Positions 1 through 16,669 of a DNA stretch of 29,945 nt are shown piece after piece. The notes under the pieces are model-generated. The model ran no database searches, had not been told where the DNA came from, and was given only the letters and a program-made list of their open reading frames with translations. The stretch is from a virus (taxonomy: Duplodnaviria; Heunggongvirae; Uroviricota; Caudoviricetes), in IMG/VR virus record IMGVR_UViG_2671181114_000018; one strand, given 5' to 3'. A program made the position numbers and the translations under genes. Positions within the stretch are counted from its first letter, which is position 1; each line of letters begins with the position of its first letter.

Positions 1-1365
1 TTATGGACGGAGGCAATACTCGGCAATTCGAAGCGCTGAAATGTGCTTTTCATGGATCATGTCGTTCCCGCATCCGCATTCATTCTCACATGGTTCTCGC
101 ACCCATACACCATCGCTATTTTTTCGGTAGAACCATCCAGGACGAAAACCTGCGTTCTGCATATACATCCCTGGGTGAACGACAACTAATTCACATACTT
201 CAATCAGGTCAGTCTCATGGCATATGATTCCAATTCCCTTCTGATACACGGCCTGAAAGTCTTTATTGACATGTTTTATTAGTTCATCTATCTCAAAAGC
301 GACGTAATTTTTTCCTTTAAGAAGCCGCTCTATCTTTGGCAAGCGCAATGGAGAATTGTCATTATCTGTACCAAAGAGAATTATGCTGGGTGAACTTATT
401 GTAACGCCGCCTGTTAATTCGCCTCTCATCGTTTCAATAGAGTCAAATAGCTCAGCTATTTTCCCACCACGATAGAAAGCAATACTAGGAGAAACGTTTT
501 TCACATAACTATCATGATATTCAGGTAATTCAAGTGACCGCTTGAATACAGGAATATCTATATTTGGATCCCTTAATTGTTCAACTTCCCGCCAAGGTAA
601 GTCTAATAACTCCTTGAGGATAGGATCCTCCGTAACTGACGGGAATAAGGAATTTGTATCAGTGATTGCATTCAATACGGCATATTGTTTTAAAAGTGAC
701 CGACTAGCTTTTATCTGTGCAATAAAGCAATTTTCTGGAACTGGCTCTCCATATAGCGGCCCTAGTAACCAAGCATCTTGGGCCTGCATTCTGGGTCGGA
801 AACCCTTAATTTCAATATCAGAAAGATCAACCAAACCAAGACGAGATGCTAGTGATTTATCTAGAATGTAGAGATATCCATCTCCATCTTCATAATAATA
901 CCTTACCGCTTTTTTTATCAGCCATATGGGGTTTTCATTACAGTCTTCGCACATGTCTATCTTTGGCGGTGGAGATGGTTTTATTGACAGTGAACATTTA
1001 TGACTCGCAAACCAAGCGGCAACTGCAGGGTTAGTGGTACAGTCAACATAGAATGATCTCCATCCATAGTGTTGTAACAGTGCCTGTACATATTCCAGAT
1101 CGTTTGCATGGCTACCAATTACTCCCTCAAGCACACTTGCAGCATAGCTAATCCACTTTATCATCGTTGACTTGTTACATTCATCGCGATCAAAAGAAGC
1201 AAGTACGGATGGTACCTCCTGCTTACCATAGAGAGAATTTTGACCTCGAAATAATACATTGTCACCAAACTGTGCAATTACAGCTTCCAGCTCACTAATA
1301 GTTCTGACCTCAAATTGTTCCAATTCTTCCCTCTCCCCTGAATTCGCAATCATGGCATCTTGCAC
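1..1365 (-). CDS. Hypothetical accessory protein with N-terminal FRG-like motif and Cys-rich C-terminus (candidate defence/cargo gene)
   Basis: Complete 454-aa ORF (stop = revcomp of nt 1-3). Contains 'VLFRGQNSLYGK' near the N-terminus, which I recall as the FRG domain signature, and Cys clusters (CEDCNENP; PCENECGCGNDMIHEKH). Visibly AT-rich compared with the phage structural genes. Function not known from sequence. Confidence 0.45.
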   Translation of the reverse strand: MQDAMIANSGEREELEQFEVRTISELEAVIAQFGDNVLFRGQNSLYGKQEVPSVLASFDRDECNKSTMIKWISYAASVLEGVIGSHANDLEYVQALLQHYGWRSFYVDCTTNPAVAAWFASHKCSLSIKPSPPPKIDMCEDCNENPIWLIKKAVRYYYEDGDGYLYILDKSLASRLGLVDLSDIEIKGFRPRMQAQDAWLLGPLYGEPVPENCFIAQIKASRSLLKQYAVLNAITDTNSLFPSVTEDPILKELLDLPWREVEQLRDPNIDIPVFKRSLELPEYHDSYVKNVSPSIAFYRGGKIAELFDSIETMRGELTGGVTISSPSIILFGTDNDNSPLRLPKIERLLKGKNYVAFEIDELIKHVNKDFQAVYQKGIGIICHETDLIEVCELVVVHPGMYMQNAGFRPGWFYRKNSDGVWVREPCENECGCGNDMIHEKHISALRIAEYCLRP

Positions 1366-1439
1366 GCAAAATTTATGAACACCGACTCTAGTACTATGTT
1401 AACAAATGTATCAAAAACTTCCCCTGTCATTTGAGTTAG

Positions 1440-1728
1440 CCATCGGAAAACCATCACAACCATCACGCCTCTTAAAATCATATCTTAACCACATGAATAA
1501 TATAGATAAATGTTGTGACGGTAAAACCATCACAAAACATAACGTAAACCGTCACACCCAATAAATTCAGTAAGTTATAAAACAGAGTTGTGATGATTTA
1601 AGACCGTCACACTGTGATGCTGTTGTGATAGTTTTGTGATGGTTTTCAATACCATTATTTACTTATATATATCATATAGATAGATACTATTATTAAATTT
1701 TGTGACGTTTGTGACGGTTTTCCGATGG
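1440..1728. repeat. Iteron-like array: about 12 copies of octamer TGTGA(C/T)GG / CC(A/G)TCACA in both orientations, bounded by 19-bp inverted repeats, with an AT-rich core
   Basis: Read directly: arms ccatcggaaaaccatcaca (1440-1458) and tgtgacggttttccgatgg (1710-1728) are reverse complements with one mismatch. Octamers at about 1451, 1460, 1514, 1526, 1549, 1589, 1604, 1613, 1624, 1635, 1701, 1710. AT-rich stretch around 1650-1700. No ORF of 60 aa or more in the region. Confidence 0.8.
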
Positions 1729-2345
1729 TCCCCCTCAATTTTTGAAAAAATCAGAATCGGTCAGAAATCACCCTGATTTGTTGGTAGTTTTGTATATCTA
1801 TCTGTTAGTGACTTGAACACTGGAGCGTATACGTTAATGCAGGTATGGCGATGGTTCAGGCTGTGCAAAGTATTTCAGTTCCGCATTTCACTGCCATTCC
1901 GCGCCAGAGCACGTCAGTTAAGGCCTGGACACTTCCACGCACTGACCTGATCTCGCTGCGACCATTACGTAAAAAGTCACGTAATCGCTGTTGTTCCCGC
2001 ATGTAATCAGGCTCCGATATTTTTCATCCACAGCCGGCAATCACACAAAAACTGAAATCCTCGAAATCTGTTTCACACATTTCAGTTGGCGAACTACTGC
2101 CAAAGCCCCAGCGCTGGCGCGGTCTGGCGATGTGTTTTGTACCACCGGAAAAACTGAAATCATTCTCAACACGAAAACCGCAGGCGGGTGCGGTGTAGCG
2201 CCGTTTTCGTCACTTCCGCCGTTATTTCGTCGTGGCAGGCTGCATCAGCGCCTTGCTGCGCTTCTGAAGTTAATCAGGTTGGGATGAACGGGTGCAGATA
2301 ATTGCGGCGCTCAGAATGCGTCTGGTGAGGTCTGGGAATGGGTAC

Positions 2346-2370
2346 AAAAAAGCCCGCATTATGCGCGGGC
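2346..2370 (-). terminator. Rho-independent terminator closing the minus-strand late (tail) operon
   Basis: Plus strand aaaaaa-gcccgc-attatgc-gcgggc: 6-bp GC stem (2352-2357 / 2365-2370) with 7-nt loop. On the minus strand the hairpin is followed by TTTTTT, 12 nt after the stop of the 2382-4085 gene. Confidence 0.6.
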
Positions 2371-2381
2371 TGATGGGATGA

Positions 2382-4085
2382 TCAGGCGATTATCTTCTGG
2401 TACTTACTCCGGGTCTGACCTGCCTTCTCCGCCGTCTGTGTGAATGCGCCGGCATTGGTTGGCGTACCAACGCTGGGGTGTGAATGGCTCGCACACTGCT
2501 GCGCCAGCTCGGCCAGTAAATCAATGGTGTCCAGCATCATGGTCAGCGTGTTAACGCTCTCACTGCCAATATGGACGGTTGGCCCCATAATCTGCTGACC
2601 GCCCGATGCCACCGATTTACGTAATGCAGCAATCTTTTCTGTCAGGGTTCCCCCCACATCAACATCCACGGCACCGGCCACTTTCGTGGATTGTTTGCCG
2701 GTTATATCGGCTTCGTCATTCCCCTCAATGCTGGCCAATCTGTTGCCCTTCACGGCCTGGCTATAATCACCGGCACTGACCTGCTGAATGGCTCCGGCCA
2801 TCAGGGTGGCGGTACCCAGCACCGTGGTTTTATCAGTGGCTTTAACTGTCGTTTCACGGCTGACCAGATCACGCTGTTCTGTATCGGCTTTAACCGTCCG
2901 CGCCATCGATGTTTCGCTGATGGTCTGATCGGTCTGCCGTACCCAATCGCCAGCCTGGGTAACGCGCTGCGACACTTCAGCCCGCTGCTGTTGCAGCTGC
3001 TCACCGGGCTTAACATCCGGCAGGCTGGTACCATCCGGCAGTGTCTGCCTGATAAACGGTTTATCAGGTCGCCCCCCGGTAAACGCAACTTCAACCAGCG
3101 TCCCTTCTGGCGGGAACTGGAACATGCCAGAGTCATTCCCGGCCATAGGTACCGGCAGCGGCACCGCTGAATAAACCGGCGTCTGGTTGTCCGGGTTGCC
3201 GTCTGCATCAAGCAGCTGCACATCAACGGCATAGCGCGGCCGGAACGGATCGGCAAAATTACCACTTTTCACAGTCTCACTGGGTGCCACCACTCTGGCC
3301 AGTTTTGGCAGGTGCAGCCCGGAAGCCAGTTCCGGGTAATGGCTTTCAATCTGGCGCTGTGCCGGTGTTTTCTGTAATGGCTGACCTGTTGCGCGGTTTC
3401 TGGGTGTCCAGGTGATGGCCATGGTGTCATTGGTCAGATGAACTTTGGTCACGCGTTCTCCGTTCAGCTCCACACCCGGCCGCAGACTCTGGATCACTGG
3501 CAGCGTCATGGAATGACCGCCAGCCGCCCCCTGGCTGAACTCTGCCGGGATATCAACCGGACGATCGGCGAACATCGCTTTTTCCGCGCCGCCCACATAC
3601 AGGGAACCATCCGGCAACTGGTACCAGATGTAATCCGGGATACTGAATGCTTTGCCCAGATTATTCAGCAACTGATAGCCAGTGCCATTGTGGGTGAAAT
3701 GGGGGATCGGCTTATCGCTGTATGGGGCATCCGGCACACTGACAGCAATTCCGCTGTTTTCCTCCAGCCAGATGGCTACCTTGCGCAAAGTGGGATGCTG
3801 AAATGAACATGGCCACATCCTTTCAAATACGCCGACCAGCTCGCGCACAAACAGACGCTGAAAACCGTTTTCGGCGGGTTGTGCGCGTTCCACATAGCCG
3901 GTAAACCAGCGCAAAAGCAGATCGGAATAACCCACATCCAGCCGCACCAGTTTCCCGGTGTAATCCGTGGCTGTCTGTGCGGTGATAAACCCCCGGCCAC
4001 AGCTGCTCAGCTCCAGCACCAGGCTGGCATCAGCCAGATGAACTTCATCCGTTGAAAGGTACAGGCGTTTAACTGGTTTCATCAT
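2382..4085 (-). CDS. Baseplate central hub-spike protein (gpV/gp5-type OB-fold domain with N-terminal extension; VgrG-like arrangement)
   Basis: 567 aa, last gene of the late operon. 'EGTLVEVAFTGGRPDKPFI' resembles the gpV/gp5/VgrG OB-fold signature (xVLVxFxxGDxDRPxV); C-terminal 'CASHSHP' resembles the HxH metal-binding spike apex. From memory; no HMM run. Confidence 0.5.
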   Translation of the reverse strand: MMKPVKRLYLSTDEVHLADASLVLELSSCGRGFITAQTATDYTGKLVRLDVGYSDLLLRWFTGYVERAQPAENGFQRLFVRELVGVFERMWPCSFQHPTLRKVAIWLEENSGIAVSVPDAPYSDKPIPHFTHNGTGYQLLNNLGKAFSIPDYIWYQLPDGSLYVGGAEKAMFADRPVDIPAEFSQGAAGGHSMTLPVIQSLRPGVELNGERVTKVHLTNDTMAITWTPRNRATGQPLQKTPAQRQIESHYPELASGLHLPKLARVVAPSETVKSGNFADPFRPRYAVDVQLLDADGNPDNQTPVYSAVPLPVPMAGNDSGMFQFPPEGTLVEVAFTGGRPDKPFIRQTLPDGTSLPDVKPGEQLQQQRAEVSQRVTQAGDWVRQTDQTISETSMARTVKADTEQRDLVSRETTVKATDKTTVLGTATLMAGAIQQVSAGDYSQAVKGNRLASIEGNDEADITGKQSTKVAGAVDVDVGGTLTEKIAALRKSVASGGQQIMGPTVHIGSESVNTLTMMLDTIDLLAELAQQCASHSHPSVGTPTNAGAFTQTAEKAGQTRSKYQKIIA

Positions 4086-4630
4086 TAACCCAAAGCATCA
4101 TTGACGGGTTTCAGCACCCGTTTTTCAAACCACGTCAGTTTTTCTTCATCTTCTCCAGCGCTCTGGCCGCCAGGCTGTCCGGCATTACCGGCCGTCTGTT
4201 TTTTGGCAGACGTTTTACCTGTTGCCCTGGCTTCCCGTTTTTCCTGCACGCTGATATGTTCTGCCAGCGTAAACGTGACCAGCCAGGCCATTTTCCCGTC
4301 CTGCTGCGAGGCATCTAGCATTCCGCTGAATGTCGCCTCACGAAAATTCACGGCTCTGGCCACTTCATGCGCCACGCGGTATTTCTGGCGGTTGCCTCCG
4401 GCATCCGTGGCACTGGCCAGTTCGAAAATACGCTTCAGGATCTCCGGGCTTTTAAGCGGAATTTCGCCACTGATACGCAGCTCTTTCCCTTTTGCCCCCT
4501 GTTCTGATTTGGTTGTGGCACTTGTCTGGCCGGACTGGTCTTTATCCTGAAACTGCTGCGAGACGGTCACGCGCATGTTTTTCAGCTGGATAGCCTCACC
4601 ATTAAGCGCCAGCGTTGGGATCGAAGTCAT
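4085..4630 (-). CDS. Hypothetical tail/baseplate-associated protein
   Basis: 181-aa ORF, start overlapping the next gene's stop inside the tail operon. No motif recognised; assignment by operon context only. Confidence 0.3.
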   Translation of the reverse strand: MTSIPTLALNGEAIQLKNMRVTVSQQFQDKDQSGQTSATTKSEQGAKGKELRISGEIPLKSPEILKRIFELASATDAGGNRQKYRVAHEVARAVNFREATFSGMLDASQQDGKMAWLVTFTLAEHISVQEKREARATGKTSAKKQTAGNAGQPGGQSAGEDEEKLTWFEKRVLKPVNDALG

Positions 4631-9225: not shown

Positions 9226-9551
9226 AAATCCACCTGATAAGAAAGTGTGCCAAAGTCGTATGTACTGGCAGTCACCCAAAGGCGTTTCTGACTTTCTTCA
9301 TTGATTTCAACTGTGCCAGGCACTATGCGTTCATCATTTTCAACCAGTAATTCAAGCTGGGTAAAAATATCTGCCCTCAACGTCGGGCTTCGCTCCGCAA
9401 TCAATTGTGTTGCCAGTCCGCTTTCAATAATGGCGTGCACAATATCCTGCCCGATACTTTTACGGTTATTGCATAATTCAGGCTCATGACCTGCATTCAG
9501 TGAGAAATCACCATTATTAATAAGCAGGTCAATATAAAGAAATTCACTCAC
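9222..9551 (-). CDS. Small baseplate protein (Mu gp46-like / GPW-position)
   Basis: 109 aa directly between the tape measure and the J-like gene, translationally coupled on both sides. Synteny-based. Confidence 0.5.
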   Translation of the reverse strand: MSEFLYIDLLINNGDFSLNAGHEPELCNNRKSIGQDIVHAIIESGLATQLIAERSPTLRADIFTQLELLVENDERIVPGTVEINEESQKRLWVTASTYDFGTLSYQVDL

Positions 9552-11587
9552 GCATTAAGCTCCTGCCATTCCATTAGCTGGGAGGGTGAAAGTGCTTCTT
9601 TGGTATGAAAATGCACTTCACCAATTTTACGGCTGTTATCCGTCACTGATTTAGAGTTACTGCTTATTGTTTTACTGATACCACCGCGATCCACATCCTT
9701 TAACTTTCCACCTGTTGAAAGGGTATTGGCAGTCAATGTTTCACTGGTATTTGCAGTATGGTTGTTCTGTATTAATGAAGGTACCACCCCACCTGTAATT
9801 TTATTTATTTCCGGCGAAACGGTTGTGGACAGGTCAATATTGACGCCCGGAATTTTATTCAGTTTTTCAACAATCCAGTTCCACGACTTCAGAAATCCGC
9901 TTTTAATGGTCTGCCAGACGTTATCAAACAGGGAAACAATACCGCTGGCCATCCCGCTTAATGCCTGTGAGGGTGAGAACCCGGCCAGCAGCGCAATAAA
10001 ACTGTTCCAGCCGTCTTTAATCCACTGCCATGCAGCGGAGAACACGCCGGCAAGCCATTCCACCACGCCCGCCACCGCCGTAAACGCTGCAGTATTCATC
10101 ACCGCCGCTTTCACATCATCCCAGTGTTTAATCAGCAGGTAACAGCCCGCAGCCAGCAGGGCTATCGCCCCGATAACCAGCAGCACCGGCCAGCTCATCA
10201 GATTAATACCAATGCCGGCCATAATCGCCGCCATGCGTACGGCCAGCAGCGTGCCACGAAGGAATTTAAGCGTGATGTTCCATGCCGCGACGGCTTTTGA
10301 GGCAATCCAGACAGTGGCGGTGTATATCTTCGTGACTGAAGTCAGCGTCTTCCAGAGAGCAATCGCGCCCAGCTTAATAAGTTTTGAGACGCCCAGAACG
10401 ATGTTCGCTACCGCGCCGGCAGCAGCAAACCCCAACAACGCCATAGCCGCATAGCCGATAACACGCGCAATGTTGGGAAACAACTGCATCCAGCGGGCAA
10501 AGGTCTGCCCCATATCGGCCAGGCGATTCAGCACCGGATACAGGACGGGGATCAACGTCAGCCCAATGACGGTCTGAATAGACTTAAGGATCTGAACAAA
10601 GCGATCCCACGGTTTCACCAGTTTCCCGGCCATCTCCTGTGTACGCTTCAATCCGTCAGAACCGCCCAGCTCAGTGATATTACGTTGCAGTAAGGCCACA
10701 TTGCCGTAAAGATGTTTCACCACCGCTGAACTGTCACCAAATGCCGCATCCAGCTCCGCCTGGGCTTTCAGGTTCCCTTCCAGGCTTTTGCCATACTTAC
10801 CCTGTAACTTGATCAGCATTTCAGGCATGGACAGCATTTTGCCGGTGGCATCCGTAAAGGACAGCCCCAGCTTTTTACCGCCCTCAATGGCTCCGGTCAT
10901 GAAGCCTTCATAAGCGCTGCTGGCTTCCGTTCCCAGCGTTCGGTTAAGCTGCCCCAGTACGGCCAGTTGTTCATCCAGCCCCACGCCGTAGTTGGTACCC
11001 ACGCCGCGCGCACCTTCCATCAGGTCTTTGATGACGCCCATTTCAGTACCGAAGACCTTGCGCATGTACACCATTTTTCCGGCCAGTTGTTCAGCAAACT
11101 GGACTTTACCCAGCCGTGCCGCCTCGGCGGAAAAGTTGCCGTACATCTGCCCCATAAACTCTGCGGTATCGGCAGATGTTGATTTCAGTGCAAACGCCAG
11201 CGTGTTGGCGACTTTCGTCACCTTCGGCAGTTCATTCCCGGTCAGGCCGGCAATGGCGGTGTTAATACTTTCCGTGGACTGGACAAACTCCACCGCGCTG
11301 GCGCCGTAGGTCATACTGAACCGCAACGCATCACGCTGGACGGCCTTTAAAGCCTGATCATCAATGCCTTTTGCGGCTGCGTCATTCAGCGCGTCATACA
11401 TCTCAATAGCCGGCGACAACGCCCCTTTGATGGCCATCCCTGTGCCGGCTAAAGCCAGCGCACCGCCCCCAATCTGCGTAAAGGCCACTTTCGATTTTTC
11501 AGCAAAGCCTGTAACACTGCTCTGCACCTGCTTTAACGGGCGCGTCAGTTTATCAATCAGGCTTAAGGTAAAATCTAACTGTTTCAT
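9548..11587 (-). CDS. Tail tape measure protein
   Basis: 679 aa, Ala/Gly-rich helical N-half, several hydrophobic segments in the middle (e.g. 'LLVIGAIALLAAGCYLLI'), directly downstream of the frameshifted chaperone. Confidence 0.8.
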   Translation of the reverse strand: MKQLDFTLSLIDKLTRPLKQVQSSVTGFAEKSKVAFTQIGGGALALAGTGMAIKGALSPAIEMYDALNDAAAKGIDDQALKAVQRDALRFSMTYGASAVEFVQSTESINTAIAGLTGNELPKVTKVANTLAFALKSTSADTAEFMGQMYGNFSAEAARLGKVQFAEQLAGKMVYMRKVFGTEMGVIKDLMEGARGVGTNYGVGLDEQLAVLGQLNRTLGTEASSAYEGFMTGAIEGGKKLGLSFTDATGKMLSMPEMLIKLQGKYGKSLEGNLKAQAELDAAFGDSSAVVKHLYGNVALLQRNITELGGSDGLKRTQEMAGKLVKPWDRFVQILKSIQTVIGLTLIPVLYPVLNRLADMGQTFARWMQLFPNIARVIGYAAMALLGFAAAGAVANIVLGVSKLIKLGAIALWKTLTSVTKIYTATVWIASKAVAAWNITLKFLRGTLLAVRMAAIMAGIGINLMSWPVLLVIGAIALLAAGCYLLIKHWDDVKAAVMNTAAFTAVAGVVEWLAGVFSAAWQWIKDGWNSFIALLAGFSPSQALSGMASGIVSLFDNVWQTIKSGFLKSWNWIVEKLNKIPGVNIDLSTTVSPEINKITGGVVPSLIQNNHTANTSETLTANTLSTGGKLKDVDRGGISKTISSNSKSVTDNSRKIGEVHFHTKEALSPSQLMEWQELNA

Positions 11588-12032
11588 CCTGAACCTTTAA
11601 ACGCGGTGCTTATTCCGTTAGCAACCGCTATACGCGTATTTTCCCAGTGGCGATTATCCAGCCAGATAGCGGCGGAAATATCATCCACGGAATCCTGACC
11701 ATGCGGTAAATAATGACGCCGTAATATCAGATATTGTTCGAGTCCGTTCTGTTCAATTGCCCGGACTCGCTTTGTCAGTTTTTTACTTCAATTTCCAGTT
11801 CGGGCGCATAAAGCTCATTAATTTTCCCTGCAAGCTGAAGCGCTGCCCCCGGACGTTTAAGAATATCTTCCAGCGCTTCTTTACATTCTGGTACAACAAT
11901 GCGCATAAGATAACTATGGGCTGGAGCTACTTTATTATCCATCGCCATTTCGTTGATGAATTTATTATAAGCCGTCTGATTTGGTTCAAAGGTAATGTCT
12001 TTTTTACATACAACCAGATTAATTTTTTCCAT
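11584..12032 (-). CDS. Tail assembly chaperone, long form made by programmed -1 ribosomal frameshift (P2 E+E' / lambda G-GT analogue)
   Basis: Minus strand reads gtA AAA AAC tga: perfect X XXY YYZ heptamer (plus 11778-11784) as the last codons. The -1 frame from there is open for about 64 codons across the otherwise ORF-free 11588-11774 gap and stops at TGA (11584-11586) overlapping the tape-measure ATG. Confidence 0.6.
11775..12032 (-). CDS. Tail assembly chaperone, short form (P2 E-like)
   Basis: 85-aa ORF immediately upstream of the tape measure gene, ending '...EIEVKN*' with a slippery heptamer at its 3' end. Confidence 0.6.
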   Translation of the reverse strand: MEKINLVVCKKDITFEPNQTAYNKFINEMAMDNKVAPAHSYLMRIVVPECKEALEDILKRPGAALQLAGKINELYAPELEIEVKN

Positions 12033-12318
12033 AAATAATATTCTCTCTTAAATTAATTTCATCAACCAGCGTGTTATGACGTGCAGCACATTGCCCGTAT
12101 AACTCCAGATATAGTGTCAGTAATTCCGCCGCATCTTTTCCCTGCGTGCCATTCAGGCGCGGCAGCTGCGTGGCACATTTAGTTTTCAGGTTTTCCTGAT
12201 AACGTACGTTCGGTACTGGTGACGGCATCGTTGTACATGCTGACAAAATCATCAGACAGGCACTTATTGGTAAACACCGGCTTAACCACTTCCGTACGGA
12301 TTTCACGCGGTGGCGCAT
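12019..12318 (-). CDS. o-spanin (Rz1-like outer-membrane lipoprotein), overlapping the i-spanin in another frame
   Basis: Lipobox 'LMILSAC' followed by Pro-rich 'TTMPSPVPN'; the ORF starts inside the 3' half of the i-spanin gene and extends past it. True start may be internal. Confidence 0.55.
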   Translation of the reverse strand: MRHRVKSVRKWLSRCLPISACLMILSACTTMPSPVPNVRYQENLKTKCATQLPRLNGTQGKDAAELLTLYLELYGQCAARHNTLVDEINLRENIIYGKN

Positions 12319-12511
12319 TTTTCAGTGCCTCCAGTTTGTCTTCCAGCCGGCGACCAGAAATACCGGCAATATCAGCCAGCCTTTCCCCGGTCGCAGTGGC
12401 CGCTTTTGAGACGGTCAGATCGATGCTGTCCCGTTGCCAGCCGGCCGTTTTCCAGCCGGCTAAAAATGCCAGAACAAGGGTGAATAACCAACCTGACACC
12501 ACGCGATCCAT
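12179..12511 (-). CDS. i-spanin (Rz-like)
   Basis: 110 aa with N-terminal transmembrane segment 'WLFTLVLAFLAGW' and a charged helical periplasmic part; immediately downstream of the endolysin. Confidence 0.6.
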   Translation of the reverse strand: MDRVVSGWLFTLVLAFLAGWKTAGWQRDSIDLTVSKAATATGERLADIAGISGRRLEDKLEALKNAPPREIRTEVVKPVFTNKCLSDDFVSMYNDAVTSTERTLSGKPEN

Positions 12512-13157: not shown

Positions 13158-13613
13158 TTATCCAATCAGGTTTTCCGTGGCTTCCGCTTCCAGATACGGC
13201 ACCCCGTTGATGTTCACGAACTTAGGACTTGTCACGAAGTATTTGATTTTGTGCGTGGATACGCTGCCACCCTTCGGATCACCATCCAGTACACTGTTGA
13301 GCTGGAGCTTGTTCCCGAAGGTTTCCACCTTCATTTCTTCGCTGCCGGCTTTGGCGTAAAAAAGGAAATCCACCGGGGGAATACCCCGCCATGAACCCGC
13401 TGAACGGGCTTTGGCCGTCAGTACCTGAAGCACTTTTGAGCTGACTTCAATTTCCCCTTCGGCGGCAACATCGCCGTCAATATAGCCGTCCGGGACACCG
13501 CGTGTCTGGGCTGCGGCGCTGTTGTCGGTGATATCCAGCGAAATTTTTTCAATGTGGATCAGGTCGCCGTCCACGTAGACGTCAAAGGACATCCCTGAAA
13601 TACGTTTGGTCAT
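13158..13613 (-). CDS. Tail tube protein (putative)
   Basis: 151-aa ORF directly downstream of the putative sheath gene, overlapping stop/start. Sheath-tube gene-pair logic; no motif verified. Confidence 0.5.
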   Translation of the reverse strand: MTKRISGMSFDVYVDGDLIHIEKISLDITDNSAAAQTRGVPDGYIDGDVAAEGEIEVSSKVLQVLTAKARSAGSWRGIPPVDFLFYAKAGSEEMKVETFGNKLQLNSVLDGDPKGGSVSTHKIKYFVTSPKFVNINGVPYLEAEATENLIG

Positions 13614-16405: not shown

Positions 16406-16459
16406 GGGCGATACGCTGATGCGATCCCCTCCACCGCGCCCGCTTTCGGGTCGGTAGTC

Positions 16460-16651
16460 TTATTCGCCGCTGACTGCGGCCTGAATCTCACCTTCTTCAA
16501 ACCACGAATCAACCGCACGGCCATCAGCAGCCTGATAGTGGATCAGATACTGATTGCAGCAGTGGGTGTATTCTGCACGGGCTTTCACATGCCCTTTCTC
16601 ACCGCTGACAGAAATCTTCACTGCTTGCCCAAGTGAATGTTTAAACCCCAT
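16460..16651 (-). CDS. Small hypothetical protein (possible moron between M and L)
   Basis: 63-aa ORF filling the gap between the M-like and L-like genes; not part of the canonical P2 set. Confidence 0.3.
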   Translation of the reverse strand: MGFKHSLGQAVKISVSGEKGHVKARAEYTHCCNQYLIHYQAADGRAVDSWFEEGEIQAAVSGE

Positions 16652-16669
16652 TTTTGAACTCTCCGATGA

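Follow-up and report, generated by a model that had tools for sequence, protein, structure and literature searches.

Programmed -1 frameshifting in the genes for tail assembly chaperones is a textbook mechanism in tailed phages, and the structures that stimulate -1 shifts start 5-9 nt past the slippery heptamer. The heptamer of phage lambda is G_GGA_AAG. In the dnaX gene of Escherichia coli, a high-efficiency shift carries the ribosome into a nearby stop codon and yields a shorter protein, and a Shine-Dalgarno-like element upstream of the site serves as a stimulator. The two products of lambda, gpG and gpGT, are made at a ratio of 30:1 and are both required for tail assembly (PMC5009743). In the record of phage P2, a -1 shift is annotated at T_TTT_TTG, and E' ends inside the start of the tape measure gene T. 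Because the mechanism is a textbook one, a further instance is no surprise to the specialist; the gain from the locus described here lies in annotation.

The DNA analysed here is a stretch of 29,945 nt (the window; IMG/VR record IMGVR_UViG_2671181114_000018) from an HP1-like prophage (Peduoviridae, ESSI-2/Evevirus-like), which is kin to Haemophilus phage HP1. Its genes are ordered as sheath (DUF2586), tube (HP1 Orf24 family; 13158..13613), holin, M15 endolysin, two overlapping ORFs (12179..12511 and 12019..12318) at a position annotated as spanins in relatives, chaperone and tape measure, the four ORFs after the tube gene forming a lysis cassette. The order chaperone, extension, tape measure is shared with HP1, phiO18P, SI7, PV94, yong1 and phi3, and lysis genes precede it in most of them.

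How is the junction between chaperone and tape measure built? Chaperone, heptamer, extension and tape measure all lie on the minus strand. The short tail assembly chaperone (TAC-S, 11775..12032), an ordinary decoding product of 85 aa and 9.6 kDa, runs from ATG (12032..12030) over 85 codons to TGA (11777..11775), and its 3' end reads ...GAA ATT GAA GTA AAA AAC TGA. Thus the slippery heptamer A_AAA_AAC (11778..11784), noticed in a preliminary description of this DNA, is indeed present: read directly, it lies in the X_XXY_YYZ phase of the chaperone frame and immediately adjoins the 0-frame stop. A TGA upstream of the heptamer (11788..11790, likewise read directly, the frame boundaries being computed) closes the -1 frame, so that entry into this frame is necessarily at or after 11787. 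The open stretch of the -1 frame extends from stop to stop over 67 codons (11584..11787; SKKLTKRV...KGSG*). Counted from the slip, the extension (11584..11778) has, as had been proposed, 64 sense codons (11778..11587; LTKRVRAIEQ...AFKGSG in translation) followed by TGA (11586..11584). The long form (TAC-L, join(12032..11778, 11778..11587)), in which base 11778 is read twice, would comprise 149 aa and 16.9 kDa. The stop of the extension overlaps the ATG (11587..11585) of the tape measure gene (9548..11587 in the ORF list, 679 aa; Pfam PhageMin_Tail, E 3e-21) as ATGA, again in agreement with the preliminary description, and this overlap is kept in all 83 unique sequences of the window's layout group. 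Two overlapping reading frames directly upstream of the tape measure gene and downstream of the tube gene are thereby found. The extension had also been said to fill the only sizeable ORF-free gap of the late operon, which is roughly right: another gap among the late genes (16406..16669) contains a 63-aa ORF, and a stretch of about 1 kb past the last tail gene (1366..2381) is poor in ORFs.

The 85-aa ORF belongs to Pfam Phage_TAC_10 (PF10963), which it matches at 117.3 bits against a cut-off of 25.7 over the full model (positions 1-82 of 82). When Pfam was scanned with E values up to 1 allowed, only this family, DUF6848 (below its cut-off) and DUF6890 appeared. The predicted model of the short form has a tail assembly chaperone fold: it matches the tail assembly chaperone of HK97 (PDB 2ob9), beside which is listed the Bacillus protein RBSTP2171 (PDB 3fgx), an entry without assigned function, both at 8-17% sequence identity and on the basis of a predicted model.

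The extension in turn corresponds to Pfam DUF6890 (PF21830; E 6.3e-25, 87.1 bits against a cut-off of 23.6), its residues 19-62 covering model positions 1-44 of 44, and it belongs to PHROG 7050; conservation also covers the 18 residues that separate the heptamer from the first position of the model. In an analysis of 83 unique relatives, the -1 frame has a pN/pS of 0.227, or 0.229 over its first 20 codons past the heptamer, as compared with values of 1.31 and 2.13 for the remaining frames; the same selection result is obtained in the Yersinia-type length class, and the third-position periodicity of the extension is that of the chaperone ORF. Each of the 83 relatives that share this layout has 2-5 stops across the gap when it is read in the 0 frame and 3-11 when it is read in the +1 frame. 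The extension lies in the -1 frame at 278 of the 282 loci having both parts. A tblastn search with the fused sequence recovered both pieces, at a coverage of at least 80%, in 65 of 76 phage records, and the proteins of eight phage genera align across the junction without gaps. Judged by these comparisons of sequence, chaperone and extension are one protein. AlphaFold, with the two parts modelled separately, predicts the extension as three helices (pLDDT 85). When the fold of the extension was compared with viral models, no match was significant (best E 1.0); the family profile found nothing among PDB sequences, NCBIfam holds no model for the fused protein, and no fold or sequence match of the extension to characterised T or E' domains was found.

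Might the extension nevertheless be a separate small protein, started at a non-canonical codon (CTG at C-TGA) or by termination-reinitiation? RefSeq and GenBank annotate it as a separate 'DUF6890 family protein', and in the window a CTG overlaps the chaperone stop and an AGGA stands 4 nt upstream of an in-frame GTG at 11688. However, relatives have V, I, A, P, Q, L, E or T at the position of this GTG, and the first ATG, GTG or TTG of the extension falls at 20 different positions, so that there is no conserved start codon. The starts annotated under the NCBI name are arbitrary and sometimes non-canonical; they are scattered over ten alignment columns, some of them at the CTG directly after the heptamer. 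At loci whose chaperone stop is TAA or TAG, the codon after the heptamer is CTA (ATA in Vibrio phages), and CTA is unusual as a bacterial start. Moreover, purifying selection and homology reach the heptamer, and in the Pseudomonas clade they reach 21 nt upstream of the 0-frame stop. A separately started protein is thus very unlikely.

The heptamer on its own is no proof of frameshifting: the 9146 codons of the window's genes include 40 heptamers that are in phase, with three ORFs ending right at such a heptamer. This abundance, together with the finding that the two parts are fused in a single frame in three related contigs, could be taken to mean that a chance heptamer lies beside a frame that is open by accident, or that the chaperone gene has been broken by a frameshift mutation. 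A heptamer combined with an open frame is rare, however: stops occur at a frequency of 0.075 in the -1 frame of the window's genes, which puts the chance of 64 open codons at about 0.007. A search for further in-frame fused layouts returned only the same three contigs, which were not treated as a clade, and the 120 best-matching database proteins for the fused sequence include no fused form. As compared sequences are decisive here, what do the relatives tell us?

An in-phase A-rich heptamer occupies the equivalent position at 277 of 278 related two-frame loci, which were found in a search using a four-member alignment and come from Enterobacterales, Aeromonas, Haemophilus and Pasteurella phages, Vibrio and Pseudomonas; the single relative without an X_XXY_YYZ heptamer is L130. 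All of 45 additional loci have one in phase as well, the forms in both sets being A_AAA_AAC, A_AAA_AAG or A_AAA_AAA. Among the 277, AAAAAAC (189) is the heptamer of enterobacterial, Aeromonas and Haemophilus/Pasteurella loci, AAAAAAG (79) that of Pseudomonas-type loci and AAAAAAA (9) that of Vibrio-type loci. The preceding codon is NNA throughout, namely GTA or, at loci with another amino acid, CTA or ATA; thus a synonymous third base is conserved, and the A is retained even when Val is replaced by Leu or Ile. In all 83 unique close relatives, GAAGTAAAAAAC is unchanged. The 0-frame stop (TGA, TAA or TAG) is flush with the heptamer at 198 of the 277 loci, and in the Pseudomonas clade it comes 21 nt after the heptamer, the overlap encoding homologous residues. 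A two-frame layout with heptamer at 277 and a further 45 loci in several bacterial orders, and a -1 frame under coding-type selection, are comparative data by which the reading as chance or decay is already contradicted, and we give it hardly any credence.

Prediction of RNA structure downstream of the heptamer, which had been proposed as a check, yielded a candidate stimulatory hairpin (11739..11769, minus strand) with an 8-bp stem, a 15-nt loop and a spacer of 8 nt from the heptamer, in which CGAGUCCG (11769..11762) pairs with CGGACUCG (11746..11739). Its minimum free energy is -15.5 kcal/mol (z -4.2); none of 200 shuffled sequences was equally stable, and when the peptide was recoded synonymously 2000 times, only 2.1% of the versions folded equally well. 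In 68 distinct relatives, 88% of the cells are paired as against 12-42% in slid controls, a control that ignores phylogeny and was applied to a structure taken from the window itself, and compensatory changes occur at five of the eight pairs; RNAalifold independently gives the identical helix. Since the stem lies inside coding sequence, part of this conservation is due to the protein. Folding of 131 nt around the site gives a structure of ordinary stability (z -1.2), so only the local hairpin stands out, and Rfam 15 has no match at E up to 1 on either strand of 11500..12100. The stable structure and its covariation, as features of a stimulated -1 signal, are found in the window's clade, the hairpin being conserved only within the clade of Enterobacterales and Aeromonas; in the HP1, Vibrio and Pseudomonas clades, different hairpins occur, at spacings of their own. 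Because of these different offsets, a stimulatory role is something that we infer.

The same long protein (...VKK-LTKRV) would be made if RNA polymerase added one A in the A6 run of some transcripts. A homopolymer run is present at the site in all 277 loci (A6 here, A7 in Vibrio phages), the conserved third-position A extends this run just as it completes the heptamer, and bacteria and insertion sequences do use slippage on A/T runs for gene expression (PMC1088944; PMC5009743). However, the run is just 6 A long, and in many bacterial genomes selection against slippage-prone runs becomes visible once they reach about 9 nt (PMC1088944). In addition, the run always has the X_XXY_YYZ phase, the P2 and lambda cases, which were studied experimentally, have been described as translational frameshifts, and a hairpin with compensatory changes 8 nt downstream is a classic ribosomal stimulator that polymerase slippage does not predict. 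We therefore consider transcriptional slippage improbable.

Comparison of the loci, then, establishes two conserved frames, a heptamer at their junction, a second frame with no start codon of its own, and a conserved downstream hairpin, and the tail assembly chaperone gene very probably contains a programmed -1 ribosomal frameshift. An outline of the proposed process is as follows: most ribosomes would read the 85 codons and stop at the TGA after A_AAA_AAC to give the short chaperone. A minority would slip back by one base, the tRNA-Lys and tRNA-Asn on AAA AAC re-pairing on AAA AAA, probably aided by the hairpin and possibly also by the adjacent stop codon. The slipped ribosomes would then translate 64 more codons, including the DUF6890 domain, and terminate at the start of the tape measure gene to give the long chaperone. 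Frameshifting is probably of low efficiency: in E. coli, A_AAA_AAC promotes less shifting than A_AAA_AAG does (PMC5009743), and this weakness fits a low-level shift. If lambda gpG/gpGT and P2 E/E+E' are taken as models, both forms may coat the tape measure protein, presumably their common client, the extension of the rare long form may recruit the tail tube protein, and neither form would be present in the final virion. Of the junction peptides expected after Glu-C digestion, VKNLTKRVRAIE would point to a two-tRNA slip once Asn has been decoded, and VKKLTKRVRAIE to a P-site slip or to an extra A in the mRNA. The junction ...EIEVKK-LTKRV given earlier is thus possible, and ...EIEVKN-LTKRV, in which both tRNAs slip after Asn, is equally allowed by the sequence.

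A rather unlikely, tentative extension of the frameshift model is that the flush 0-frame stop is part of the signal, and that the fused relatives use the site in reverse, in a dnaX-like manner, to make the short form. The fused relatives L206 and L207 retain the heptamer, and a -1 slip there would lead to a stop after 5 codons. If this idea were true, frameshifting would compete with termination, and the kinetics of release factor would set the ratio of long to short form.

The shift is unannotated in the records inspected (ESSI2_ev239, an E. coli prophage, YenM_324, HP1, phiO18P, SI7, PV94, yong1 and phi3), and both Pfam and PHROGs give the function of the extension as unknown. A literature search on DUF6890, HP1, HP2, K139, phiO18P and ESSI-2, which did not cover the survey of Xu, Hendrix and Duda 2004, found no description of the shift; the nearest papers give the two ORFs separately or deal with other topics. 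The comparative sequence data support reading the 'DUF6890 family protein' as the extension that frameshifting adds to Phage_TAC_10 chaperones. Read in this way, the family would gain a function, and hundreds of prophage annotations would be corrected. The series of heptamers ending in AAC, AAA and AAG also offers natural material on how shift efficiency is tuned to the host.

How does this locus compare with the known systems? The E/E+E' pair of P2, in the FETUD tail operon, comes from the same virus family (Peduoviridae) and occupies the same position before the tape measure gene T. In both, a single-base run near the end of the short ORF (91 aa in P2, 85 aa here) forms the slippery site, T_TTT_TTG in P2 and A_AAA_AAC here, and the extension, 51 codons after the re-read codon in P2 and 64 here, ends at or inside the tape measure start. 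The slip occurs 20 nt upstream of the E stop in P2, whereas here it directly adjoins the stop; tube gene and chaperone are separated by a lysis cassette here, unlike in P2; and the shift is annotated in the P2 record but not in HP1-like records. The Pfam families also differ from those of P2, only Phage_TAC_10 and DUF6890 passing their cut-offs here, and hhalign with a profile of eight genera detected no similarity to P2 E+E' (probability 0.2%, E 0.26). Therefore the likeness to P2 is one of mechanism and gene position by analogy, not of family membership. In this sense the earlier assignment to a G/GT or E/E+E' mechanism is supported, the sequence-level features expected of such a frameshift being present. 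With E. coli dnaX the locus shares an A-rich heptamer decoded by tRNA-Lys and a downstream hairpin, and the dnaX heptamer A_AAA_AAG is itself used by the Pseudomonas relatives; no Shine-Dalgarno-like element was seen by eye upstream of 11784, and the shift here lengthens the protein, unlike that of dnaX. Lambda is a siphovirus, and its sequence families differ from those here. Nevertheless, lambda gpG/gpGT likewise has a -1 shift late in the chaperone ORF, an X_XXY_YYZ heptamer and an extension ending at the tape measure gene, and the expected low ratio of long to short form and the chaperone role, with domain roles that we infer here, are also alike.

The tail assembly chaperone gene of the window (12032..11775, minus strand) encodes 85 amino acids and has the 3′ end GAA ATT GAA GTA AAA AAC TGA. 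The slippery heptamer with which the preliminary description had this ORF end is indeed present: A_AAA_AAC lies at 11784..11778 (minus strand) in the X_XXY_YYZ phase, with the stop codon immediately 3′ of it. In translation, the −1 frame is open from stop to stop for 67 codons (11584..11787, minus strand), and its 64 sense codons counted from the slip read LTKRVRAIEQNGLEQYLILRRHYLPHGQDSVDDISAAIWLDNRHWENTRIAVANGISTAFKGSG. The expectation of about 64 codons ending at a TGA that overlaps the tape-measure ATG is likewise borne out, as the extension stop (11586..11584) and the start codon (11587..11585) of the gene for the 679-aa tape measure share bases as ATGA. In-phase heptamers occur 40 times in the 9146 codons of the window's genes, and the chance of 64 open codons in a −1 frame is about 0.007; on their own, the heptamer and the open frame are suggestive, short of proof. 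Heptamers are also flush with the ends of two other minus-strand ORFs, T_TTG_GGT (4088..4094) in 4085..4630, where the −1 frame corresponds to the following gene, and A_AAA_AAT (12022..12028) in 12019..12318, a spanin in relatives' annotation, whose −1 frame meets no stop for 31 codons; these two appear to be accidental, a result of gene ends that overlap.

The 85-aa protein covers the whole Pfam model Phage_TAC_10 (E 3.4e-34) and the extension matches DUF6890 (E 6.3e-25). By Pfam, a PhageMin_Tail tape measure lies 3′ of the extension, followed by a DUF2590 gene and a Baseplate_J gene, and a DUF2586 sheath and an HP1-Orf24-type tube lie 5′ of the chaperone; between tube and chaperone are a holin, an M15 endolysin and two overlapping ORFs called spanins in relatives' records. 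Judged by sequence, the tail module is of the HP1 type. Among phage records, Escherichia phage ESSI2_ev239, an Evevirus of the Peduoviridae, is nearest (about 90% identity across 1 kb), and a chaperone of identical sequence is on record from Salmonella enterica (protein search). Elsewhere in the window, the last tail gene (2382..4085) has weak Gp5_C and Phage_base_V matches, and the region past it (1..2381), in which about 1 kb devoid of any ORF of at least 100 aa is followed by an FRG-domain ORF that begins at 1365, continues past the low-coordinate edge and encodes 454 aa or more, may be cargo or a prophage edge; the window contains no tRNA gene. The only other late-gene gap (16406..16669) is mostly occupied by a 63-aa ORF (16460..16651, minus strand) that has no Pfam match.

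A tblastn search with the fused protein, that is, chaperone and extension joined by a −1 slip, matched 76 phage records, in 65 of which the two pieces together cover at least 80% of the fused sequence, from phages of Escherichia, Salmonella, Cronobacter, Yersinia, Aeromonas, Haemophilus, Pasteurella, Vibrio, Pseudoalteromonas, Salinivibrio and Pseudomonas. When both domains were placed by profile HMMs in the three forward frames of 285 collected loci and the window, the extension was in the −1 frame in 278 loci and in the chaperone's own frame in four, the other four being truncated. An in-phase A-rich heptamer stands at the homologous site in 277 of the 278 two-frame loci: A_AAA_AAC flush with the stop (189), A_AAA_AAG 21 nt 5′ of the stop (79, one of them at 36 nt) or A_AAA_AAA flush with the stop (9). 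All 45 additional two-frame loci carry A_AAA_AAG. The codon preceding AAA is GTA, or CTA or ATA where Val is replaced by Leu or Ile, the synonymous third base A being retained even after the amino-acid change. Fused proteins from eight genera align through the junction free of gaps. In the Pseudomonas clade, the 21-nt overlap before the 0-frame stop encodes the seven residues that correspond by homology to LTKRVRA, which places the switch to the −1 frame at the heptamer rather than at the stop. Chance or gene decay as the source of this arrangement is contradicted by these comparative data.

The last base of the heptamer tracks the host group: C in enterobacterial, Aeromonas and Haemophilus/Pasteurella relatives, A in Vibrio-type loci and G in Pseudomonas-type loci. 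The sole two-frame relative lacking an X_XXY_YYZ heptamer, from a Saccharospirillaceae MAG (L130:1421-1452), has a chaperone ending in TCG GTA AAG GTA TAA, where the one evident candidate is slippage of a single tRNA on A_AAG. One-frame fusion is seen in three related contigs, through an A8 run (L199:1449-1470), an extra C 3′ of an A6 run (L206:1458-1480, on a contig shared with L287) and GTA AAA AAA GTC (L207:1452-1475). All three retain the heptamer; in the latter two a −1 slip would reach a stop after five codons (RARPR*, SPRAR*), a dnaX-like layout reversed relative to the two-frame loci. Their nearest relatives (84% identity) have the usual two frames, and the fusions may be sequencing error, prophage decay or a real variant.

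Selection was followed in 83 unique sequences sharing the window's layout. The −1 frame of the gap varies mostly at third codon positions (0.99 bits vs 0.35 and 0.24 at positions 1 and 2), mirroring the chaperone ORF (1.13 vs 0.31 and 0.11 bits), and its pN/pS is 0.227 (0.229 for the first 20 codons 3′ of the heptamer), against 1.31 in frame 0 and 2.13 in frame +1. GAAGTAAAAAAC does not vary among the 83, and the pattern of selection recurs in a second length class. The seven codons before the stop (CTG GAA ATT GAA GTA AAA AAC; 11785..11805, minus strand) have nearly invariant third positions in these relatives (0-0.4 bits vs a mean of 1.13), and synonymous constraint therefore extends about 12 nt 5′ of the heptamer, which could reflect codon bias or an upstream element.

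Public records treat the extension differently. E. coli RefSeq prophages carry a 46-aa 'DUF6890 family protein' in the gap; ESSI2_ev239, phiO18P, SI7, yong1 and phi3 have a small hypothetical ORF there, HP1, PV94 and YenM_324 leave it blank, and none of these is annotated with a frameshift. A separate DUF6890 protein is contradicted by the missing start codon, by the CTA that many relatives have where it would start and by conservation that reaches the heptamer. The −1 frame has no conserved start among 209 unique sequences, in which the first ATG, GTG or TTG falls at 20 positions, and the in-frame GTG at 11688, preceded by AGGA, is unconserved in relatives. Among 5.8 billion proteins, the best 120 matches of the fused sequence are all chaperones of 85-99 aa; the extension alone retrieves 39 clusters of 45-71 aa, mostly named 'DUF6890 family protein'. 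The N-termini of these entries spread over ten alignment columns, as expected of an ORF without its own start, and some, beginning MTKRV..., start from the CTG directly 3′ of the heptamer. The main gain is one of annotation: DUF6890 is to be read as a frameshift extension of these chaperones. Our literature search found no paper describing the shift in HP1-like phages, relatives of Haemophilus phage HP1, and the 2004 survey by Xu, Hendrix and Duda may include HP1.

The preliminary description had proposed RNA structure prediction 3′ of the heptamer, and an 8-bp stem with a 15-nt loop was found 8 nt downstream, pairing CGAGUCCG (11769..11762) with CGGACUCG (11746..11739; minus strand). The hairpin (−15.5 kcal/mol, z −4.2) was equalled in stability by 0 of 200 shuffles, and when the peptide was recoded synonymously 2000 times, only 2.1% of the versions were as stable. 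Across 68 distinct Enterobacterales and Aeromonas sequences, 88% of cells are paired vs 12-42% with slid partners, five of the eight pairs show compensatory changes (e.g., G-C to A-U in 21 sequences) and RNAalifold finds the same helix independently. Rfam gave no family match. Because the helix was taken from the window, the shuffles ignore relatedness and the region is coding, and because hairpins in the HP1, Vibrio and Pseudomonas clades differ and stand at different distances, a clade-specific stimulator is likely rather than established. The same long protein could arise by slippage of RNA polymerase, which is less likely because the run has only six A and the hairpin is not predicted by it; selection against slippery runs is seen from about nine nt in many bacteria (PMC1088944).

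A −1 ribosomal frameshift on A_AAA_AAC is the best-supported reading of the sequences, yielding a major short form (85 aa, 9.6 kDa) and, by the slip, a minor long form (149 aa, 16.9 kDa). Sequence comparison demonstrates that both frames are coding, that the in-phase heptamer is conserved, that a start is missing and that the hairpin is present; slippage by the ribosome rather than by RNA polymerase, its efficiency and the residue at the junction (Asn or Lys) are inferred. Ribosomes of E. coli shift far more readily on A_AAA_AAG than on A_AAA_AAC or A_AAA_AAA (PMC5009743), which agrees with a shift of low efficiency in the enteric phages.

Lambda produces gpG and gpGT in a ratio of about 30:1, and in that phage the tape measure is bound by the G part and the tube protein by the T part (PMC5009743); by analogy, the two forms here would divide their roles likewise. 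In P2, of the same virus family, the annotated E/E+E′ shift is at T_TTT_TTG, 20 nt 5′ of the E stop, and E′ ends 8 nt into T, a layout shared with the window. The class of mechanism is already known, and a shift in the window's chaperone is supported. The preliminary assignment to the G/GT or E/E+E′ mechanism stands as to layout, coding −1 frame and heptamer, but P2 E+E′ has no detectable sequence similarity to the window's protein (hhalign probability 0.2%) and the Pfam families differ. The element appears to function like P2 E/E+E′ and lambda G/GT and is by sequence a member of neither, its domain matches placing it in Phage_TAC_10 plus DUF6890.
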